Program-made: the position numbers and the translations under genes
Notes under the pieces: model-generated
What the model was told of the DNA's origin: nothing
Databases searched by the model: none
What the model saw: only the letters and a program-made list of their open reading frames with translations
Shown here: piece by piece, positions 11,843 to 24,592 of the stretch
Numbering within the stretch: the first letter of the stretch is position 1
Layout of the letters: every line of letters starts with the position of its first letter
Source: Thermoleophilia bacterium
GTDB taxonomy: Bacteria; Actinomycetota; Thermoleophilia; BMS3ABIN01
NCBI GenBank assembly: GCA_014859345.1
Contig: JACUUL010000005.1
Coordinates: 1,072 to 65,071 of the forward strand
Reading direction: 5' to 3'
Length of the DNA stretch: 64,000 bases

Positions 11843-12901
11843 TCAGACCAGCACGTCGATCCGGCCGGTGTCGTCCTCCGCCTCCATGATTCCGATCTTC
11901 GCGTGCACGATCGTGCCCGCCTCCTTAAGCGCCGACTCCAGCTCATCGGCTTTTTCGGGCGGGCAGGAAATGAGCAAGCCTCCGGATGTCTGGGCGTCAG
12001 CTAGCAGCAGCCGTTCCGCCTGAGAGAGCCCCGGATCGAAATTGGTGAACGCCTGGACGAATTCCAGGTTGTTTTTAGTTCCGCCGGGGACAATGTTCAG
12101 GTCTTCGAAAACGAGGTCGCGCGCAGCCTGGATCGTAGGGACCGCCCGCGCGTGGATCCTGGCGCCTACGCCGCTACCCTGGGTCATCTCGCCCAGATGC
12201 CCCAGCAGGCCGTAGCCGGTAACGTCGGTGCAGGCGTTGACACCCACCTTCACCATTGCCTCCGCCGCCGCCCGGTTGAGCGTGGTCATGATCTCGGTCA
12301 CGCGCCTGATGGCTGCCTCGCTGGCAATGCCCCGCTTGATGGCGGTGGCGATGATTCCGGTGCCGATCGGTTTGGTCAGAAAGAGGACATCTCCTGCCTG
12401 CGCTGTGGAATTGTAGACGATCGCGGCCGGGTCGAGCACGCCGGTGACGGCAAGGCCGTACTTGGGCTCCTTGTCATCGATGGTATGGCCGCCCACGATC
12501 TCGATACCGGCCTCACGGGCCTTGTCGGCGCCGCCTTTCATCATCCTGGTCAAGATCTCCAGCGGCATGCCCCGGGTATGGAAACCGACTATATTAAGCG
12601 CGAACATCGGGCTGGCTCCCATGGCGTAGATATCGCTTAACGAATTGGCAACCGCTATGGCTCCGTAATCGTAGGGATCGTCGACGATAGGAGTGAAATA
12701 ATCGACTGTCTGAATGATTGCCAGATCGTCGGTTATCTGGTAAACAGCGCAATCATCGCCGGTGTTTATGCCCACCAGCACGTTGGGATCGCGCACCGGA
12801 GGCAGCTCCCTGAGAATCTTTTGCAAGTCCGACGGACTTATCTTGCAGGCTCAGCCGGCGCCGTGGGCCAGCTGGGTGAGCCGGATTTCCTGCTCTTCCA
12901 T
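11843..12901 (-). CDS. selD: selenide, water dikinase (selenophosphate synthetase); selenoprotein with in-frame UGA (Sec) at 12851-12853
   Basis: The track ORF (TTG start at 12826) has all SelD core motifs but lacks the catalytic N-terminus. Reading upstream in frame gives ATG (12899-12901), then MEEQEIRLTQLAHGAG-TGA-ACKISPSDLQKILREL. This matches the E. coli motif HGAGCGCKISP with Sec in place of Cys17. RBS GGGAGAGG lies upstream of the ATG. A hairpin starts 11 nt after the UGA. Confidence 0.85.
12822..12846 (-). ncRNA. candidate SECIS hairpin inside the selD coding sequence
   Basis: mRNA: UGA-GCCUGCAAGAU(11 nt)-AAGUCC-GUC-GGACUU. Inverted repeat AAGUCC/GGACUU, extended by GCAAG/CUUGC. Confidence 0.55.
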
Positions 12902-12948
12902 GAACCTCTCCCTTCTATGACGGTTTGTAATACTTAAGTATAATAGTT

Positions 12949-13734
12949 TTAAACGCCTGCCAAATCCAGAGCCATGCCCACCGCCGTGGCGGCTATCACG
13001 AGCGCCAGGACCTGCCGCAGCCGGCGTCTTCTGGTGATCTGCGATAAATATCCGCCTCCCTGAGCGCCCAGGAGAGCGCCTGCGATTAGAAAAACCGCCA
13101 TGGCCATCTCGACCTGTCCGGTCACCACTTTGCCGGCTGACCCTGCAAGGGCCGCCAGAAACACGATGCCGAGCGAACTGCCTATTGTCGTCCGGGTGGG
13201 GATTTTCAGCACATAAAGCAGGACCGGGATGATGATAAAGGCCCCCGATTGGCCCACCAGCCCTCCCACCAAGCCCAAGATTAACGCGCAGGCCGCCGCC
13301 AGGGGCCGGCTGAAATCGATCTCGGACGCGTGCGGTTCCTCAGAAGGCTCCTTTTTTGGAATGAGCATCATGACGGCGGCTATCAATGCCAGCACGACGA
13401 ATACACCCATCAACGCGCCGGCGGAGGCGAACCTGGAAAGCACGGCCCCGGTCAGCGAGGCAACAGCAATGATACCGCCCATCCACAGGACCAGTTCCCT
13501 GCTGACAAATTGGAACCGGCGATGGACGATGACACCGGAGCCGGTCGCGAACAGGCTCTGCACCATGGTGAGTCCGGCGACCACCTTCATGTCAGGATTT
13601 GCGACTCCGAGGGCCGGGGGTACGTACAGAAGCAGGGGGGCCATGATGATGCCGCCGCCGATTCCCAGCCAGCCGGAAAAGAAGCCTCCAACGAGGCCGA
13701 GGCCGAGCAATGTTATGGCCAGCTCGATGGTCAT
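12949..13734 (-). CDS. TauE/SafE (DUF81) family anion permease
   Basis: 261 aa, 7-8 TM helices, Gly-rich internal repeats typical of TauE/SafE. Lies 47 nt upstream of selD on the same strand. Confidence 0.65.
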   Translation of the reverse strand: MTIELAITLLGLGLVGGFFSGWLGIGGGIIMAPLLLYVPPALGVANPDMKVVAGLTMVQSLFATGSGVIVHRRFQFVSRELVLWMGGIIAVASLTGAVLSRFASAGALMGVFVVLALIAAVMMLIPKKEPSEEPHASEIDFSRPLAAACALILGLVGGLVGQSGAFIIIPVLLYVLKIPTRTTIGSSLGIVFLAALAGSAGKVVTGQVEMAMAVFLIAGALLGAQGGGYLSQITRRRRLRQVLALVIAATAVGMALDLAGV

Positions 13735-13772
13735 AAAATGGTTGCTTGTTCCTGGGGAGGAGAACCGGCCTG

Positions 13773-14327
13773 TCAGTCCTTGTCTGTCAGGAGTTCATCC
13801 AGATAGGCCACGTGGCTGGAAAATCCGAGGGCTGAGGTATATGCCAAAGCCTCGCTCAGAGTCCGGCCCACCACATAGGAGCCGTGACCGCGGATGACGG
13901 CGGCCACGTGAGTCTGCAGCACCTGGGGGATACGGCTGTTGGTCTGTTCCGGATCCACCACAGGAACCTCCCGGAGAAACACAGAGCCTTCGAGATCCCT
14001 TGGAGCAATCATATCACTTCTGAGGGAGAGGGCAATGGCGTGTGGCGGGTGGGCATGGATGATGGCCGCGGCCGGAGTAAACCTGTAAATGAGCTGATGC
14101 AGGCCGGCATCACTGGACGCGCCGCCGGCGATGCGGTCCGGTTCTTCCCGAAGGGGGATTTCCACCAGGTCGCCCGGACCCAGGCGGCCCAGCATGGCGA
14201 AATGAGTGGTCACGATCATGTGGCCCGCGTGACGGACGCTCATGTTGCCGCCGTGGGACGTAGAAAGGCCCAGCCAGAGAAGATCTTTCCCTACCTGCTG
14301 AAATTGCTCGAAGATCAGGTCCTGCAT
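13773..14327 (-). CDS. class II aldolase/adducin-family protein (FucA/MtnB-like)
   Basis: 'LSTSHGGNMSVR' and the conserved His metal-ligand region. Confidence 0.65.
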   Translation of the reverse strand: MQDLIFEQFQQVGKDLLWLGLSTSHGGNMSVRHAGHMIVTTHFAMLGRLGPGDLVEIPLREEPDRIAGGASSDAGLHQLIYRFTPAAAIIHAHPPHAIALSLRSDMIAPRDLEGSVFLREVPVVDPEQTNSRIPQVLQTHVAAVIRGHGSYVVGRTLSEALAYTSALGFSSHVAYLDELLTDKD

Positions 14328-14342
14328 GATCGTGAACTCCGT

Positions 14343-15698
14343 TCAGCTTGACTTTCCGGCGCCGCCCGCTTCACCTGGCAGCTCCACCGTATGCACAATC
14401 CGGGCCCGGGAGCCCGCCCGGGCAAGCATGTCTGTCAAGTGCATGCGGCACGAGGGGCAGCCGGTAACCACTGCCTGGACGCCGCTGGCTGCAATCTCCT
14501 CGGCCTTGCGGAGCCCTATTTCGAGAGCCATGTCATAATGCTTGAGGCTGAAGAGGCCTCCGCCGCCGCAACAGGATTGCCCGCCCGGCATCTCGATGTA
14601 TCTTACCCCGGGGATGGAAGCGATAATCTCCCGGGGCCCGTCGGTCATGTCCAGCCCGTGGCGGAGATGGCAGGGGTCGTGCCAGGTCACGGTGATCTCG
14701 TCTTCGCCCGCCCCCTTGTCTCCCGGGGACATGCCGGCCCGGGCGCGGGCCGCGCGCTTTTCTTCAGGCCCGGCGACCGCCCCGGTCTTGGCAGGCGTGC
14801 CGTATCCGGCCATAGAGCCCGAAGCAAGGAATTGATGGATGTCCAGCACTTTGGCAGCCAGCTTCCTTGCGTCCGACCGGTCCGGGCCCAGCAGCCTCGG
14901 CAGCTCCTCCCTGAGGGACAGGGCGCAGGACGGACAGGGGGTGACGACGGCATCGGCGTCGAGAACGCCAAGAATGTGAAGATTGTTCTCGAGCATCAAG
15001 CGGGCGGCGCCTTCTTCCCCCAGCGACAGCAGTGGCATGCCGCAACACTTAAGGCCACGCGGGCTGAGGACATCGTTTCCGGATCTGTTCAGCGCCGCGA
15101 CGGCGGCGAGACCCGTTTCCGGATAAAAGGCAGTCGTACTGCAACCAGGAAAGAGGATCACCCGGGAGGCGCCTGCTTCCGGGCCGCCTGACGCGTGCGA
15201 GATCTCCGGCAACATATCCAGAAGAGATCTCCCGGGCGGCGCGGGAAGTACGCGTTTGCGGCCCGAGCGGCAATAAGGCAGGTAACTCGCGGCCGGGGCC
15301 TTTTGGTAAAGGGCAGCCTCCAGGAGGCCCGCCAGCCTTAAACCGGCTTGGGGGCGGCCGCCTGTTCCGGCCAGGGCCGCAGTGGCGGACCGGGACAGCT
15401 TCCAGAACCCGCCTTCCGCGGCCAGAAACGCTTTCGCGGCCGCGATGATCCGGTGTGGGTCGATGCCACTGGGACAAACCCCTGCGCAGGCGCGGCAGCC
15501 CAGGCAGCGGGAGAAGCGGCCGGCCAGTCCGCGGGTCAGGCCCAGACGATCATCGAGCACCGCCTCCAGGAGGCTGACGCGGCCTCTGGCCGCCAGCGAT
15601 TCGTCGCCAGAAACCTGATAGGAAGGGCATGCCTCCAGGCAGGCGCCGCAGCGGGTGCAGCGGCGGATCTGGTCCTCGATCTGTCGGGGAAGGGTCAT
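14343..15698 (-). CDS. (Fe-S)-binding oxidoreductase, GlcF/GlpC-like with two CCG domains
   Basis: N-terminal 2x[4Fe-4S] ferredoxin motifs (CTRCGACLEACP...CLGCRACAGVCP) and C-terminal CCG motifs (CCG...CPSC). Confidence 0.65.
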   Translation of the reverse strand: MTLPRQIEDQIRRCTRCGACLEACPSYQVSGDESLAARGRVSLLEAVLDDRLGLTRGLAGRFSRCLGCRACAGVCPSGIDPHRIIAAAKAFLAAEGGFWKLSRSATAALAGTGGRPQAGLRLAGLLEAALYQKAPAASYLPYCRSGRKRVLPAPPGRSLLDMLPEISHASGGPEAGASRVILFPGCSTTAFYPETGLAAVAALNRSGNDVLSPRGLKCCGMPLLSLGEEGAARLMLENNLHILGVLDADAVVTPCPSCALSLREELPRLLGPDRSDARKLAAKVLDIHQFLASGSMAGYGTPAKTGAVAGPEEKRAARARAGMSPGDKGAGEDEITVTWHDPCHLRHGLDMTDGPREIIASIPGVRYIEMPGGQSCCGGGGLFSLKHYDMALEIGLRKAEEIAASGVQAVVTGCPSCRMHLTDMLARAGSRARIVHTVELPGEAGGAGKSS

Positions 15699-15722
15699 GA
15701 ATGATCCCGTTGTTTATCTGGC

Positions 15723-16736
15723 CTATTGCGGAGAGACTGCCCGCAACAGCCTGGCAGCGCTCTCGGGCGCCACGATGTTCACCCAGACACCCGCCCCCAT
15801 CTCCAGGCCTCCCAGCATGGTCGTGCGCGGCAGGATCTCCAGATGCCAGTGGAAGGGCCGGAGCTCTCCATGCAGCGGATAGGTGTGGATCCAGTAGTTG
15901 AATGCGGGATCGCCAAGCCGCTCGTGGTAGCGCATGAGCAGGCCGGTCATCATCTCGGCCATCTCAGGAAGATGTTCGCATTCCTCGAATCTCATCTCGT
16001 GACGGCGCGGCACGATCCAGCTTTCGTAGGGCAGGCGGGAGGCAAATGGGCTGAAGGCAATGAAGTTTTCGCTGAGGCTTATCAGCCGCTCCCCGGATTC
16101 GATCTCCTTCAGGACGATGTCGCACAGAATGCAGCTTAGCTCGCCGGGCCGAGACTGGGCGAAGCCGTCCAGTTCCATGTCTATCAAAGACGGAATGAAG
16201 GGCAAACCGTAAAGCTGCGAATGCGGATGCGGCAGCGAAGACGCGGCCGCGAGACCGTGATTGCGGATGATGTGGACATAGGCGGTGCGGCCCTCTTCTT
16301 TCATGGCCAGGATACGGTCGCGGTACGTGTTGAGCATGTCAAGAACCTGAGCCGGCCCCCGCATCCAGGGAGGCTCTCCATGCTCCGGGGTGTCGACGAT
16401 GACCTCGCTGGTGCCCAGAGCGGGCTTTAGGTCCGGCGAAAATGACTGTTCGGCGCCGGCGCCTGGAACCTGGCTGACCAGGATAGGGAACTTGTTGGGA
16501 AAGACGCGCACAGTCCAGCCGGGGCAGTCGCGGCCCTCCTCTTCACGGCAGGCACTTATTTCCGGAGGAGTCTCCATCTCGTGCCCAGGACAGAAAGGGC
16601 ATTGCTCTTCGGGCTGGGTTTCCGTCACTGCCGGCTCGGGGGCCCCGGGCCGCTTGCCTCGCCCGGCGGCCAGCACCACCCATTCCGAGGTGATCGGATC
16701 TCGCCGGAATTCCGGACTGAATCTCTCTTCGCTCAT
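15723..16736 (-). CDS. galT: galactose-1-phosphate uridylyltransferase-like HIT-family nucleotidyltransferase
   Basis: 'CPFCPGHE' zinc site and an HxHxQ-type motif ('HPHSQLYG'). Confidence 0.65.
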   Translation of the reverse strand: MSEERFSPEFRRDPITSEWVVLAAGRGKRPGAPEPAVTETQPEEQCPFCPGHEMETPPEISACREEEGRDCPGWTVRVFPNKFPILVSQVPGAGAEQSFSPDLKPALGTSEVIVDTPEHGEPPWMRGPAQVLDMLNTYRDRILAMKEEGRTAYVHIIRNHGLAAASSLPHPHSQLYGLPFIPSLIDMELDGFAQSRPGELSCILCDIVLKEIESGERLISLSENFIAFSPFASRLPYESWIVPRRHEMRFEECEHLPEMAEMMTGLLMRYHERLGDPAFNYWIHTYPLHGELRPFHWHLEILPRTTMLGGLEMGAGVWVNIVAPESAARLLRAVSPQ

Positions 16737-16742
16737 GACCGG

Positions 16743-17078
16743 CTACGTCCGCGGCTGTTTTTTTTCACGGCCAGCGAAGGGCTCCAGTGTCCACTGTCCG
16801 GTGCCTTCGTCAAGGGCAATGTCGTACATGCGGCCGTTGTGGGCGTATACGCGGAAGAAGGTCTTGCGCCGCCTGCTCTTGCTCGATTCCTCCTGCCAGG
16901 TCTTCTTGACCTGCAGGATGGTTAATTTTTTTCCCTCTATCTCGAATGAGCGGGGTCGTTCATCGCTTTTGAAGCCGGAATATGAATGCACGGTGATGGG
17001 CCGGCCTTCGCTCTTTTTTTTGGAGCCGCTGGCGCTCGCCTTTCCTCCGGCTGGCTGATGTTTCTTTTCAATGGACAT
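16743..17078 (-). CDS. hypothetical protein (basic N-terminus)
   Basis: Track ORF, 111 aa. Has its own upstream region containing a tandem direct repeat. Confidence 0.4.
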   Translation of the reverse strand: MSIEKKHQPAGGKASASGSKKKSEGRPITVHSYSGFKSDERPRSFEIEGKKLTILQVKKTWQEESSKSRRRKTFFRVYAHNGRMYDIALDEGTGQWTLEPFAGREKKQPRT

Positions 17079-17144
17079 CGATTCGATTATATGAAACTCG
17101 CGGGCGCCGTACTAAATTAATTTTAGGTTCCAGGCCCACTGCCG

Positions 17145-17176
17145 CGAAAATCGGGGACAGCGAAAATCGGGGACAT
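17145..17176. repeat. tandem direct repeat 2 x 16 nt (cgaaaatcggggacaG / cgaaaatcggggacaT)
   Basis: Read directly from the sequence. Lies 67-98 nt upstream of the 16743..17078 gene start, next to an AT-rich near-palindrome (ctaaattaattttag). Confidence 0.8.
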
Positions 17177-20381: not shown

Positions 20382-20813
20382 TTAACGTGCTTCAGTTCCG
20401 GGACACGTCAATTCCTTTTCAATCAGTCCGCGCACCCGGATAGCCGCCGCCGCGACTTCGGCCGAGAGCCCGCCGTCCCGGGGCATGACATTTCCTACCT
20501 GCACGGCGAATACGAGGACCTCTGGATCGATTCCTTTCAGGCGGGCGCTGGTGATCAGGTAAGGCAGGCCCATGCCATGGATATTGTTGGAACGCAGATT
20601 CATGATGCCAGCCTCGTCGGGATGGAATTTGAAGATGGCGCCCGGACTGGCTCCGCAGTCGATGGCGTCCACCGCGATAACCAGGTCATAATCCAGGAAA
20701 TATCTGATCAGCGCCATGCCGGCCGTGGCCCCGGTGACAAGCTCGACTCCGGGAGGCACCGATCCGGGATCGAACCCCTCAACCACCGCCACGCCCACTC
20801 CGTCATCGGCCAT
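20382..20813 (-). CDS. hydrogenase maturation endopeptidase (HyaD/HybD/HycI family)
   Basis: 143 aa with 'DDGVGV' and 'AVDAIDCG' motifs. Last gene of the hydrogenase operon. Confidence 0.7.
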   Translation of the reverse strand: MADDGVGVAVVEGFDPGSVPPGVELVTGATAGMALIRYFLDYDLVIAVDAIDCGASPGAIFKFHPDEAGIMNLRSNNIHGMGLPYLITSARLKGIDPEVLVFAVQVGNVMPRDGGLSAEVAAAAIRVRGLIEKELTCPGTEAR

Positions 20814-20875: not shown

Positions 20876-21538
20876 TCAGCCCTGGCTGGAAGCCCGGGAC
20901 TCCGGAGCTTTCGGCTCGCGCCAGGCGAACATCATACGCCACTCTCTCAGCACCTCCGCCATTGTCAGGTAGATATGTACGCCCACTGTGATGATGAAGG
21001 CCCACATGATCAGATAGTGATACGTGCGCATGGCGGCCAGGCCGCCCAGGACGTTCGTCATCGGCGCGAACAACCCCCTTGTCGGAGCCCATAGAGCCAG
21101 GCCCGTGAGAAATGACAGGGGGATGAGGATAAAGGCCCAGAGCAGGTAAGTGTACTTCTGCAGCGGATTGAATTTGTAGACGCTGGGATATGTGTCCCGC
21201 AGGAACAGGTAATACTTGATCGTTTCCCTGGGCTTTGATTCCCCGGTCCTCCTGAGCGGGCTGAACCACTTGTAATCGGGCCCCTTGACCCTCCCGCCCG
21301 GAGGCGCGGAGCCGGCGCCAAAGAAAGCCCAGTAGAGGCGAGTCACCGTGGTGAGGACGAAGGTCCACATGGCGATCTGGTGGATCGTGATCATGTAGCC
21401 CATGGCGCCTCCGAAAAACGGGCTGTTGATGTAGAAACCCGTGAAGACCAGCAGGATCAGAGACGTCAGGTGTACGCCGTGCATGATTATCGCGGGCAGC
21501 GGATGCTCTTCTCTTGTCGGCGGTATCCGTCCGGCCAT
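20876..21538 (-). CDS. Ni/Fe-hydrogenase b-type cytochrome subunit
   Basis: 'HPLPAIIMHGVHLTSLILLVFTGFY' HyaC/HydC signature, 4 TM helices with His ligands. Start taken at 'MAGRIP'. The coordinate is +/-1 because my hand reading of 21480-21541 disagreed with the track. Confidence 0.65.
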   Translation of the reverse strand: MAGRIPPTREEHPLPAIIMHGVHLTSLILLVFTGFYINSPFFGGAMGYMITIHQIAMWTFVLTTVTRLYWAFFGAGSAPPGGRVKGPDYKWFSPLRRTGESKPRETIKYYLFLRDTYPSVYKFNPLQKYTYLLWAFILIPLSFLTGLALWAPTRGLFAPMTNVLGGLAAMRTYHYLIMWAFIITVGVHIYLTMAEVLREWRMMFAWREPKAPESRASSQG

Positions 21539-21548
21539 GTCAGACCTC

Positions 21549-23180
21549 CTAGCGCACCTGGAACTTGAGGACCTGGTTGTTTTTCGGTTCAATCACGTGA
21601 ACCGCGCAGGCCATTCATGGGTCGAATGTGTGTACCGTTCTCAGTATTTCCAGCGGTCTGGCCGGATCGGCGACCGGAGTGCCTACCAGCGCCTCTTCCA
21701 CCGGGCCGCGCACCCCGTCGTCGTCCCGGGGCGAGAGGTTCCAGTTGGAAGGAGGCACCGCCGCATATGAGTCGATCTTCCCCCCGCTGATGCGCGCGTA
21801 GTGGGCCAGGGCTCCCCGGGAAGCGTCCCAGCCGCTGTGGCCGTCACCCTCGCGGCCGTAGTCCGGCTCCCTGTAGACCTCCTTGTTGCCGGCGCCGATA
21901 TTTTCCAGCAGCTCGTCGGCCCACCTGACGGCGTTGTCCGAGTTGACCTTGGCCTTTATGACACGGGCCGCCACCCGGCCCAGATCTGACAGGAGTATCT
22001 CCGGCTGGCCGGCCGCTCCGACAGCCGCCAGGGTGTCGTCGACCAGCTGTACCACTTCCGGCCGGCCGGTCAGATAAGCCACCAGAACCTGGGCGAGGGG
22101 GCCGACCTCCATGGGCCGGTTCTGGTCGCCGTAGCGGACCGCCTGGGTCCAGTCGTACTTGCCCTCGGGCAGCTCTTCGCCTTCCATCGGCGGCAGCTCC
22201 GTGAACTGGATCGGCTCCTGGCCCGAGTCCAACGGGTGTTTGCCGTCGCCCACGCTGTCATCGAACCAGGAAGACTTGGTGTACATCCTGGTCTCGTCCG
22301 GATGAACCTCCTGAAGCTCAAGCTGGCCATCGAAAATGGCGCCCCGGGGGAAGAGACGGTCGTAAGGATCCTGGCTCGCCTCGTCCAGGACACCCCAGGA
22401 AAGGAAATTGCCGACTCCCTGGCCGGTACCGGCCAGGTCCTCGCCGTAGATGGGCGCGATCGCCAGCAGGTCAGGAACCATGACCGTGTCTATGAAGTTC
22501 TTGACCTCTTCCATGCGCGACTTGTAGAAGGCGATCTCGTCCAGCGCAGGAAGCTGAGTGACCCCGCCGGGTATGTAGTGGTGGATCATTGGGAAGCGGC
22601 CGCCCAGTATCGCGTTGCACTCATTGGCCTTCGACTGAATGTCGATGGACTGCAGGTAATGCGCGGTGAGCTCGAGATCGAGCTCCGGCGGCAGCTTGTA
22701 TGCGGGATGATCCCAGTACATGTTCGCGAACGGTCCCAGCTGTCCGGAATCCACAACCGCCCTTACCTGGTCCTGCACCGCCTGCAACGAAGGAGTTTCC
22801 GGACTGGCATTAAGGGCGTTGGGAACGTTGACATAATCGAAAGCGTTGAGCACATAGAACCAGAGTATGTGGTCGTAGCCGATCTGCGCCGCCTCGGTCA
22901 TGTTGCGGATGAGTCGGGCGTTGTCGTCCACCGTCTCCATACCCAGGGCGGTCTCCACCGCCCGTACTGAGTTAAAAGCATGCGGGTTGGGACAGACGCC
23001 GCAGATGCGCTGGGCGAACTGCCAGATGCTTTTGGGGTCGCGCCCTTTCATGAAAATCTCGAAGCCGCGGAAGAGGGTGGCGGTGTTCCAGGCGTCTGTG
23101 ATAACGCCGTCCTCCACCTGGCAGGTAATGCGAAGATGGCCTTCGATGCGGGTTATTGGGTCGATGACTACTTTCGGCAT
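21549..23180 (-). CDS. [NiFeSe] hydrogenase large subunit; selenoprotein with in-frame UGA (Sec) at 21615-21617
   Basis: N-terminal 'RIEGH' and 'RICGVC' Ni-binding motif. The track ORF stops after '...RTVHTFDP'. That stop is TGA, and continued reading gives U-MACAVHVIEPKNNQVLKFQVR then TAG (21549-21551). 'DPUxxCxxH' is the [NiFeSe] C-terminal Ni-ligand motif (DPCxxCxxH in [NiFe] enzymes). Confidence 0.85.
21586..21603 (-). ncRNA. candidate SECIS hairpin in the hydrogenase large-subunit mRNA
   Basis: UGA-AUGGCCUGCGC(11 nt)-GGUUCA-CGUGAU-UGAACC. Perfect 6-bp stem, 6-nt loop. Confidence 0.55.
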
Positions 23181-23224: not shown

Positions 23225-24328
23225 TCATTCTTCTGTCTCTTCCTTGCCCGCCACCGGGCCTCCCCTGCCGAACCGTCCCTTGGCGACCTGTCCCACTGCA
23301 TGGGCGCCAATGCCGATGGCCGTGGCCGCGCCCAGGGTCACGCCGATCTGGGTGGGCGTGATGTCGCCCGGCAGCCGGATTCCCGATTCCTTGTCGTAAA
23401 ACGGAGTCAGCTTGTCCCAGAAATCCGGCTCGGAACAACCGATGCAGGGACCGGCCTCAACCGGCCAGCTTATCTCACCGTTCCACTTGGTCTTGGGGCA
23501 GGGGGCATGGGTGACCGGACCCTTGCAGCCCACTTTGTACAGGCACCACCGTTTTTCCGATGCCTCGTCACCGAAGCGCTCCACAAATCTGCCGTTGTCA
23601 AAATGGCCGCGGCGCTCGCAGTTGTCGTGCACGGTCTCGTCGAAAAGGAACAACGGGCGGCCAAAAGAATCCAGCTCGGGCAGCTCGTTGTGCACCAGCA
23701 CATAGGCCAGAATGGCGATAGTGTCCTCGGCGTTGCCGGGGCAGCGCGGCGAGTTGATCACGGTGACGTCGGACAGCCCGGCGTCCTGGCGCAAATAGTC
23801 GGCCACTCCCTTGGCGCCGGTGGGATTTGGCGCAGCCGCCTGGATGTTGCCGTAGCAGGCGCAGGAGCCGATGGCAATAGTCGCGTTGGCTCTCTGGTAA
23901 GCCTCCAGCACTATATCGGCGGCGGTCCGGCCGTGGATGGTGATAGCCTCGGGTATCTCGGTGGCGACGGCCCCTTCGACGATATAAAAGAAATCATCGG
24001 TGGCAAGCGTGTCCTGAAAGCTTTGCTCAGCCTCGTCTCCGGCGGGCGCCATAACCGCCTCGTGATAATCGAGGGAGATCTGCTGCAGGATAAGCTGGGC
24101 CGGAGTCGGCTTGCGACTCTGAAGCAGGTTGACCGAACAGCCCAGGCATTCCTGGAAGAGGGACCAGATTACCCGCGGTCTCATGGCTACCTCCTCAAAG
24201 GCCTGGGCGACTCGCGGAGCCGCCAGCGGTCCGCTCAGGCCTATGAGGGCCGCCAGGGTGCCGCAGCTTTTGAGAAAATCCCGTCGCGACAATCCTGGAA
24301 AAATGGACAGTTCCCGGTGATCTTCCAT
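23225..24328 (-). CDS. [NiFe(Se)] hydrogenase small subunit with twin-arginine signal
   Basis: 'SRRDFLK' Tat motif and Fe-S cluster cysteine patterns. ATG at 24328 is preceded by GGGAGG; the track ORF has a 27-aa upstream extension. Confidence 0.8.
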   Translation of the reverse strand: MEDHRELSIFPGLSRRDFLKSCGTLAALIGLSGPLAAPRVAQAFEEVAMRPRVIWSLFQECLGCSVNLLQSRKPTPAQLILQQISLDYHEAVMAPAGDEAEQSFQDTLATDDFFYIVEGAVATEIPEAITIHGRTAADIVLEAYQRANATIAIGSCACYGNIQAAAPNPTGAKGVADYLRQDAGLSDVTVINSPRCPGNAEDTIAILAYVLVHNELPELDSFGRPLFLFDETVHDNCERRGHFDNGRFVERFGDEASEKRWCLYKVGCKGPVTHAPCPKTKWNGEISWPVEAGPCIGCSEPDFWDKLTPFYDKESGIRLPGDITPTQIGVTLGAATAIGIGAHAVGQVAKGRFGRGGPVAGKEETEE

Positions 24329-24592
24329 ATCCTGCCTCCCTGCCTCGTTTTTTTGCGGCATGCCAGCAAGTTTCTTAATCCATTCTGTGCCGGTGGGGTC
24401 ATTGGCCATGTTTTACCCCGCCGGCTTACTTTTTTCCGCCAAGCCCTGTCTTTAATCTTTTCGCAATCATATCACGTTCTTCTTTTCTGGCTCTTCATTC
24501 CTGTTTCCTGTTTTTCCATCCGGTTCCGGTGATAACTTTGCCGGCGGGACAGGCGAGGCTCAGCGGCGGTAGAATAAACGGACATTGCGGAG

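Follow-up and report, generated by a model that had tools for sequence, protein, structure and literature searches.

The selD gene in a stretch of 64,000 nucleotides from a Thermoleophilia metagenome-assembled genome (Actinomycetota; contig JACUUL010000005.1, hereafter the window) is immediately preceded by a gene for a TauE/SafE permease, and this pair recurs in at least nine phyla. In the window it forms the end of a block on the minus strand (11843-17078) where six co-directional open reading frames (ORFs) follow each other in the order DUF6504, GalT-like, GlcF-like, aldolase, TauE and selD, with intergenic distances of 6, 24, 15, 38 and 47 nucleotides. The comparisons suggest, with a probability of roughly 60%, that this block is composite, that its conserved unit is a two-gene cassette of TauE and a selenocysteine (Sec)-encoding selD, and that the permease supplies SelD with inorganic selenium. 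The object of interest is this cassette and not the larger block of five genes described in the original prediction. The cassette consists of the following features:

11843..12901, minus strand: selD, selenide water dikinase, 352 codons (TIGR00476, NF002098)
12823..12842, minus strand: putative hairpin resembling a selenocysteine insertion sequence (SECIS), 7-8 base pairs with a GUC loop (conservation, RNAalifold)
12902..12948, minus strand: spacer between TauE and selD, 47 nucleotides, with a ribosome-binding site (sequence)
12949..13734, minus strand: TauE/SafE (TSUP) permease of the selD-linked subfamily, 261 amino acids, candidate selenium permease (PF01925)

The adjacency was assessed with TauE as the only query, without any selD information, and with one genome per GTDB species, which gave 80 loci with 10-kb flanks in which the proteins of the window were located by tblastn. 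The loci were divided at 38% identity to the TauE of the window. selD is immediately adjacent and on the same strand in 46 of the 54 informative loci with a TauE of at least 38% identity (six further loci are cut by a contig end) and in none of the 12 informative loci with a more distant TauE, a difference with a Fisher exact p of 2.6e-8 that is only a guide because the loci are not phylogenetically independent. The alignments of the two genes lie about 25-390 nucleotides apart, an approximate distance since the tblastn alignments stop short of the gene ends. The linked loci belong to Actinomycetota, Myxococcota, Gemmatimonadota, Planctomycetota, Nitrospirota, Desulfobacterota (including Desulfobulbales, Geobacterales and Deferrimicrobia), Gammaproteobacteria (Thiogranum), Acidobacteriota and Bacillota (Desulfosporosinus). 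The two genes occur in either order, TauE followed by selD as in the window and selD followed by TauE in most of the others. In one locus from Thermodesulfovibrionales (L007, 10001-12949), selD is flanked on both sides by paralogues of the TauE subfamily. TauE homologues were also aligned, and in a neighbour-joining (NJ) tree of the TauE sequences the selD-linked proteins form a single clade, apart from all unlinked distant TauEs.

In the converse approach, metagenome contigs were scanned with a SelD alignment, resulting in 80 selD loci with 45-59% identity to the SelD of the window. TauE is adjacent to selD on the same strand in three of these, with alignment gaps of 27-46 nucleotides. Other clusters of neighbours in this sample are selU-like (5), selB-like (4), selA-like (4) and yedF-like (4), with identities read by eye from representative sequences and without confirmation by hidden Markov models. 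TauE is a minority partner of selD, about as frequent as each of these clusters.

In the SelD tree, the TauE-linked proteins are found in about five blocks interleaved with unlinked SelDs. Together with the two gene orders this means that the adjacency has been maintained or regained, and was not inherited just once. One of the blocks mixes six phyla (L059, L051, L002, L058, L037, L003 and L006), which suggests that the two genes are also transferred together as a cassette. The same block could be taken as a sign that the adjacency has no meaning for selenium, either because the pair merely travels by horizontal transfer or because TauE carries an unrelated anion, and TSUP genes are indeed numerous per genome (PMC5840216). 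This explanation is very unlikely, as it leaves unexplained the retention of the pair in five SelD lineages, in both orders and at 40-70% protein identity, and also the lack of selD at all 12 of the other TauE loci.

The rest of the block behaves differently. Relatives within the class were examined by context look-ups of close TauE relatives and a tblastn re-scan. The region is syntenic across the class, with spermine synthase, CrcB, metallophosphoesterase, MFS, DUF6504 and GalT to the left and with TauE, selD and, further on, proA, DeoC aldolase and amidohydrolase to the right. The following arrangements were found:

Window and L001: all six genes
L083 and L087: GalT, one to three PMT_2 genes on the opposite strand, GlcF-aldolase-TauE-selD
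L081: GalT, PMT_2, aldolase-TauE-selD, with GlcF as frameshifted C-terminal fragments only
L086: GalT, GlcF fragment, aldolase-TauE-selD
L069: GalT, GlcF fragments, aldolase, and TauE at the contig end
L084 and L085: GalT, PMT, GlcF fragment, TauE-selD, with the aldolase absent

TauE-selD is the only invariant part within the class. The GlcF-like gene has undergone recurrent pseudogenisation in sister genomes, with fragments in four of eight arrangements; frameshifted C-terminal pieces stand where the window has the intact gene (L081 7026-7332, L084 7654-7899, L086 7171-7392 and L069 2931-3309). Intact copies are 46-48% identical, compared with 69-83% for SelD, and GlcF is the fastest-evolving gene of the block as well as a repeatedly lost one. 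GalT is separated from the selD side by the PMT_2 genes, one to three in number and on the opposite strand, in L081, L083, L084 and L087, and the window lacks these insertions. GalT, GlcF and aldolase are found beside selD only in relatives within Thermoleophilia; homologues of these three and of DUF6504 were found neither near selD in the other 45 TauE-selD loci nor in the 80 metagenomic selD loci. DUF6504 and the GalT-like, GlcF-like and aldolase genes are lineage-specific neighbours and not part of a conserved selenium module.

The original prediction had interpreted the five genes as a module for selenium uptake and activation, and had named the neighbourhood of selD in relatives beforehand as the refuting test. 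TauE and selD remain together in relatives (the 46 of 54 loci above), and GalT, GlcF and aldolase do not, so that the module in its five-gene form does not pass this test, and its TauE part does. The description of the block itself holds up better. ORF calls and profile matches agree with a co-directional minus-strand block of five genes with selD last, and every domain assignment agrees with Pfam and NCBIfam. Three of the four gaps given (15, 38 and 47 nucleotides) are correct and the first is 24 instead of 25 nucleotides; the five members are confirmed, but the sixth co-directional ORF, DUF6504, had been omitted.

A wider version of that idea is that all five or six genes make up one selenium operon, where TauE would import, the CCG protein would reduce a substrate such as selenotrisulfide to selenide, and the aldolase and GalT would act on a selenium metabolite. 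CCG domains carry out disulfide-type reductions in the Hdr and Dsr systems. The genes are co-directional with gaps of 6-47 nucleotides and no terminator-like sites between them in the window, the gene order is the same in L001, and a weak match to a CCG protein is located 2 kb from a pair of TauE genes in Rokubacteria (L010). The neighbourhood comparison has largely refuted this alternative and left it hardly any probability, because of the GlcF fragments in L069, L081, L084 and L086, the missing aldolase in L084 and L085, the PMT_2 insertions, the lack of upstream homologues in the 45 and 80 loci, the low identity of intact GlcF relative to SelD, and the pairing of GlcF with GlcD-like flavoproteins outside the class. 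Close spacing of co-directional genes is common in bacteria and alone not beyond chance; the non-random part of the block is the adjacency of TauE and selD only.

Within the cassette, TauE and selD are probably translated from one transcript, and the four upstream genes may be co-transcribed in this genome. On the minus strand, the gaps between the genes of the block contain no terminator-like sites, and such a site is present 3' of selD (11788-11772), with proA on the other strand and convergent with the block. A scan for sigma-70 promoters was at background (2 found, 2.2 expected) and is uninformative on internal promoters.

The mechanical ORF call for selD begins at 12826, downstream of an in-frame TGA. 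When the gene is read from the ATG at 12901, 16 codons are followed by this TGA at 12851-12853 (codon 17) and the frame then resumes; the gap of 47 nucleotides to TauE is a consequence of this start with the TGA read through. A ribosome-binding site, GAAGGGAGAGG at 12904-12914, ends 3 nucleotides ahead of the ATG. The peptide around the TGA is MEEQEIRLTQLAHGAG-U-ACKISP, where HGAG-U-ACK corresponds to codons 13-20, and the position of the TGA is the catalytic cysteine (Cys)/Sec site in a G-[UC]-x-x-K loop. Scored with C in place of U, the protein reaches 390 bits against TIGR00476 (cut-off 125) and 372 against NF002098 (cut-off 299), and both PF00586 and PF02769 (AIRS and AIRS_C) match. The frame is kept across the TGA in seven relatives and in about 40 further loci, and nearly all TauE-linked SelDs have an in-frame TGA, with Cys in the Thiogranum group. 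The selD gene of the window is itself a predicted selenoprotein gene of the Sec form.

A hairpin begins 9 nucleotides past the UGA (12823-12842). Its nucleotides are unchanged in the seven relatives, synonymous sites included, and RNAalifold predicts the structure; two variable flanking positions have one-sided changes that preserve the pairing, and the alignment shows no compensatory double changes. The single-sequence folding energy of the region after the UGA does not differ significantly from shuffled sequences (z = 0.56), and Rfam families, SECIS and riboswitches included, had no match anywhere in the window. It is conservation that supports a putative SECIS element here, and folding energy and Rfam give no support. 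ARAGORN found no tRNA-Sec within the window. Sec-type SelD is well known. The SelD of the window has the same N-terminal G-U-x-C-K loop and AIRS and AIRS_C domains as known Sec-containing SelDs with a bacterial SECIS, with its putative hairpin likewise just after the UGA, and shows nothing unusual in comparison.

The permease scores 138.9 bits against PF01925 (gathering score 32.6), with residues 9-254 aligned to profile positions 1-237 of 237. An AlphaFold (AF2) model of it is polytopic (predicted local distance difference test 91.2, predicted template-modelling score 0.87), with the first and fifth transmembrane helices (TM1 and TM5) broken at the motifs GIGGG (G24-G28) and GQSG (G161-G164). 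The model and the conserved glycines display the 4+4 helix architecture with glycine-rich motifs in TM1 and TM5 that is expected of TSUP. The selD-linked proteins share the full-length Pfam match, the eight-helix 4+4 plan and the glycine-rich breaks with the TauE/SafE exporters (TSUP, PF01925, TC 2.A.102), and the presumed substrate is likewise a small oxyanion analogue of the sulfur group. They differ in that they constitute a separate clade with residues of their own (Q162, R181, S186, T56 and others), in that their genes adjoin selD and not sulfonate-degradation genes, and in the proposed substrate, selenium. Characterised TauE/SafE genes are associated with sulfonate catabolism; here the neighbours are the aldolase gene and selD, and selD is the constant neighbour in 46 loci.

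Eight residues, P39, T56, A116, A146, Q162, R181, S186 and I247, are at least 90% conserved in the clade and seldom or never seen in the outgroup. In the model, Q162 is situated within the break of TM5, and R181 and S186 at the start of the next helix, predicted positions that make an anion site formed by these three plausible. They cannot be mapped onto a solved TSUP structure because a PDB sequence search with TauE gave nothing at E <=1 and the best solved match in a fold search with the model was BacA/UppP (template-modelling score 0.53). NCBIfam has no model for the selD-linked subfamily.

Other genes recur near the pair. A divergently transcribed LysR-type regulator is present in 13 loci, 11 of which have the TauE-selD pair. 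It resembles LysR_Se, a subfamily linked to Sec genes by Lin et al. (PMC5322559), although this is a likeness only. ArsR-type regulators are present in loci from Nitrospirota, and a few Nitrospirota loci encode two small DsrE-like proteins (L026 2546-3267, directly 3' of TauE; also L033, L055 and L063). An SQR-like Pyr_redox_2 flavoprotein of 396 amino acids is found in five loci (L012, L019, L025, L033 and L063), and in Geomesophilobacter sediminis the gene directly upstream of selD-TauE encodes a NifS-like class V aminotransferase (L051 7639-10702). These neighbours (LysR, NifS-like, DsrE-like and others) have functions in the sensing and trafficking of selenium or sulfur.

In the proposed mechanism, the TSUP-family permease would move inorganic selenium species across the inner membrane, most plausibly selenite or hydrogen selenite as an analogue of sulfite and otherwise selenide, and the selenium would be delivered to SelD for synthesis of the selenophosphate used for selenoproteins. 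A selenium permease is the best reading because of the sulfite substrate of the namesakes, the constant partner SelD and the nearby genes for regulators and trafficking. The view in the original prediction that TauE is a plausible selenium transporter has gained from the linkage with selD, which makes the permease a credible candidate; selenium as the cargo and the direction of its movement are suggested by gene context.

The direction might be the opposite. A selD-linked TauE could be an exporter that clears excess selenite, selenide or sulfite and thereby prevents poisoning during selenium activation. Selenide is toxic, YedE has also been discussed as a possible exporter (PMC5322559), and the passages of PMC3597751 and PMC5840216 that cite Weinitschke 2007 describe the namesake members TauE and SafE as exporters. 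Nevertheless, export is unlikely. Exporting a substrate would be counter-intuitive when the enzyme co-expressed with the permease requires it in trace amounts, the linked SelDs are mainly of the Sec type and need selenium for their own synthesis, and the NifS-like, DsrE-like and LysR neighbours suggest delivery and sensing over detoxification, though none of these points is decisive. Co-expression with a Sec-dependent SelD is most consistent with import. The narrower proposal, that the selD-linked subfamily may be dedicated to importing selenite or selenide for the synthesis of selenophosphate and be regulated by selenium, is tentative and falls somewhat short of even odds.

Several observations weigh against selenium supply by a conserved TauE-selD cassette. 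Eight of the 54 informative loci within the clade have no selD nearby despite at least 1.1 kb on each flank. In Rokubacteria (L010 1176-3998 and L013 7833-10648), two TauE copies in tandem lie next to a divergent LysR gene, and there is no selD within 10 kb; this LysR clusters with those that accompany TauE-selD pairs, and members of the subfamily can thus occur without the linkage. In the metagenomic sample, about 95% of the selD genes have no TauE beside them, which makes the permease an optional accessory at most. The 38% threshold was set after the data had been seen, and is supported by the tree, and the NJ tree carries no bootstrap values. A potential selenium-binding Cys was looked for among the residues that are at least 90% conserved in the subfamily, and none was found. 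Finally, both export (TauE, SafE) and import (TsaS, Corynebacterium CysZ) have been assigned to TSUP members, which makes the direction ambiguous.

The specific uptake of trace selenium by cells is not yet understood: according to reviews of 2022 and 2026, a high-affinity system for selenium transport has yet to be identified in prokaryotes (PMC9312934, PMC13188914). In a 2024 study, five candidates including yedE were deleted and none was required, and no dedicated selenium transporter was known in any organism; a yedE deletion mutant of Methanococcus maripaludis had no clear phenotype (PMC11097638). Comparative genomics had led to the prediction of YedE/YedF as a candidate selenium transporter system (Lin et al. 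2015, PMC5322559), and the same logic applies to the TauE subfamily, namely a membrane protein akin to transporters of sulfur compounds that is tied to selD by genomic context and is proposed to supply selenium. The two differ in fold and family without relation to each other: YedE belongs to PF04143 with ten transmembrane helices and invariant Cys, whereas the TauE subfamily has no conserved Cys and the TauE of the window matches only PF01925 in Pfam and not the YeeE/YedE family PF04143.

A full-text literature search found no paper linking TauE, DUF81 or TSUP to selD, though the link may show in gene-context databases. No mention of DUF81, TauE or a permease is made in the paper where YedE was introduced (PMC5322559), and the sole hint in the literature is a match for kernel selenium near a TauE/SafE gene in a genome-wide association study of maize (PMC11287846). 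Sec-type SelD, TauE/TSUP permeases and selenium accessory genes predicted by context (YedE, YedF and LysR_Se, as well as DUF3343) are already-known kinds. What appears to be new, as far as comparative genomics can tell, is the linkage of selD with a TauE subfamily, a candidate functional variant of a known transporter family. A permease subfamily adjacent to selD in at least nine phyla is a concrete candidate that can be tested genetically, with cultured hosts available, namely Desulfosporosinus paludis SB140 (L059), Desulfopila aestuarii DSM 18488 (L031) and Geomesophilobacter sediminis Red875 (L051). If it is a dedicated importer, it would be the specific prokaryotic selenium transporter that the reviews call unidentified in any organism. 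The linkage also gives annotators a reason to drop the name "sulfite exporter" for selD-linked TauE genes.

The four upstream genes of the block are as follows:

13773..14327, minus strand: class II aldolase/adducin-family protein, 184 amino acids, PRK08660-like (PF00596)
14343..15698, minus strand: GlcF/GlpC-like Fe-S protein, 451 amino acids (Fer4 dicluster and two CCG domains)
15723..16736, minus strand: divergent GalT-family HIT nucleotidyltransferase, 337 amino acids (PF01087, CPFC and HPHSQ motifs)
16743..17078, minus strand: DUF6504 small protein, 111 amino acids (6 nucleotides upstream of GalT)

The aldolase scores 95 bits against PF00596. It directly precedes TauE in most relatives within the class, and was rejected as a core partner since it is missing in L084 and L085 and in all other phyla. 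The GlcF-like protein has the same Fer4 dicluster and two CCG domains as GlcDEF and the GlpC/COG0247 Fe-S oxidoreductases, but it scores below the curated cut-offs for GlcF and GlpC (for GlcF, NF008434 with 122 bits against 333), has no adjacent FAD_binding_4 gene of the GlcD/GlcE type in the window, is not a selenoprotein and is decaying in sister genomes. Its nearest homologues outside the class (36-37% identity) adjoin a GlcD-like FAD protein instead of selenium genes and are ordinary two-subunit 2-hydroxyacid dehydrogenases. COG0247/GlpC-type Fe-S oxidoreductases can be selenoproteins (PMC9312934), as the original prediction had pointed out for CCG-domain oxidoreductases of this family in some anaerobes; for the copy in the window this was rejected, because its ORF is uninterrupted with no in-frame TGA (Cys form).

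The GalT-like protein matches PF01087 above the gathering score and contains HPHSQ and CPFC, with 87 bits against TIGR00209 (cut-off 102) and 109 against NF008724 (cut-off 448), and is a divergent member of its family. The pair DUF6504-GalT is present in every class relative examined with that side covered, and DUF6504 may be a real functional partner of GalT. On the other side of the block, a histidine kinase of about 1,100-1,300 amino acids with HAMP, GAF and PAS domains lies between selD and proA in L081, L083, L084, L086 and L087, some of which also have a GT4 glycosyltransferase gene 3' of selD; the window has neither.

The window contains a further gene of interest for selenium use. The large subunit of a [NiFe] hydrogenase (21549-23180, minus strand) has an in-frame TGA at 21615-21617 in the C-terminal nickel-binding motif, HTFDP-U-MACAVH, and the frame runs 21 codons past it. 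This is predicted to be a [NiFeSe]-type hydrogenase and the second selenoprotein gene of the window. Alongside it are the genes for the small subunit (23225-24409), a cytochrome b (20876-21592) and a HycI-type protease (20382-20813). The gene is located 9 kb from TauE-selD and gives one client selenoprotein; with a Sec-form SelD and a [NiFeSe] hydrogenase in the window, the organism therefore uses selenium.

Upstream of DUF6504 is a gap of 286 nucleotides, where relatives have an MFS transporter gene. The gap holds a tandem direct repeat on the minus strand at 17144-17174, consisting of two copies of GTCCCCGATTTTCGC with a period of 16 nucleotides, and a TATAAT is found about 8 nucleotides ahead of the DUF6504 ATG, just upstream of 17078. 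The repeat and the TATAAT could be an operator and the promoter of a leaderless transcript.

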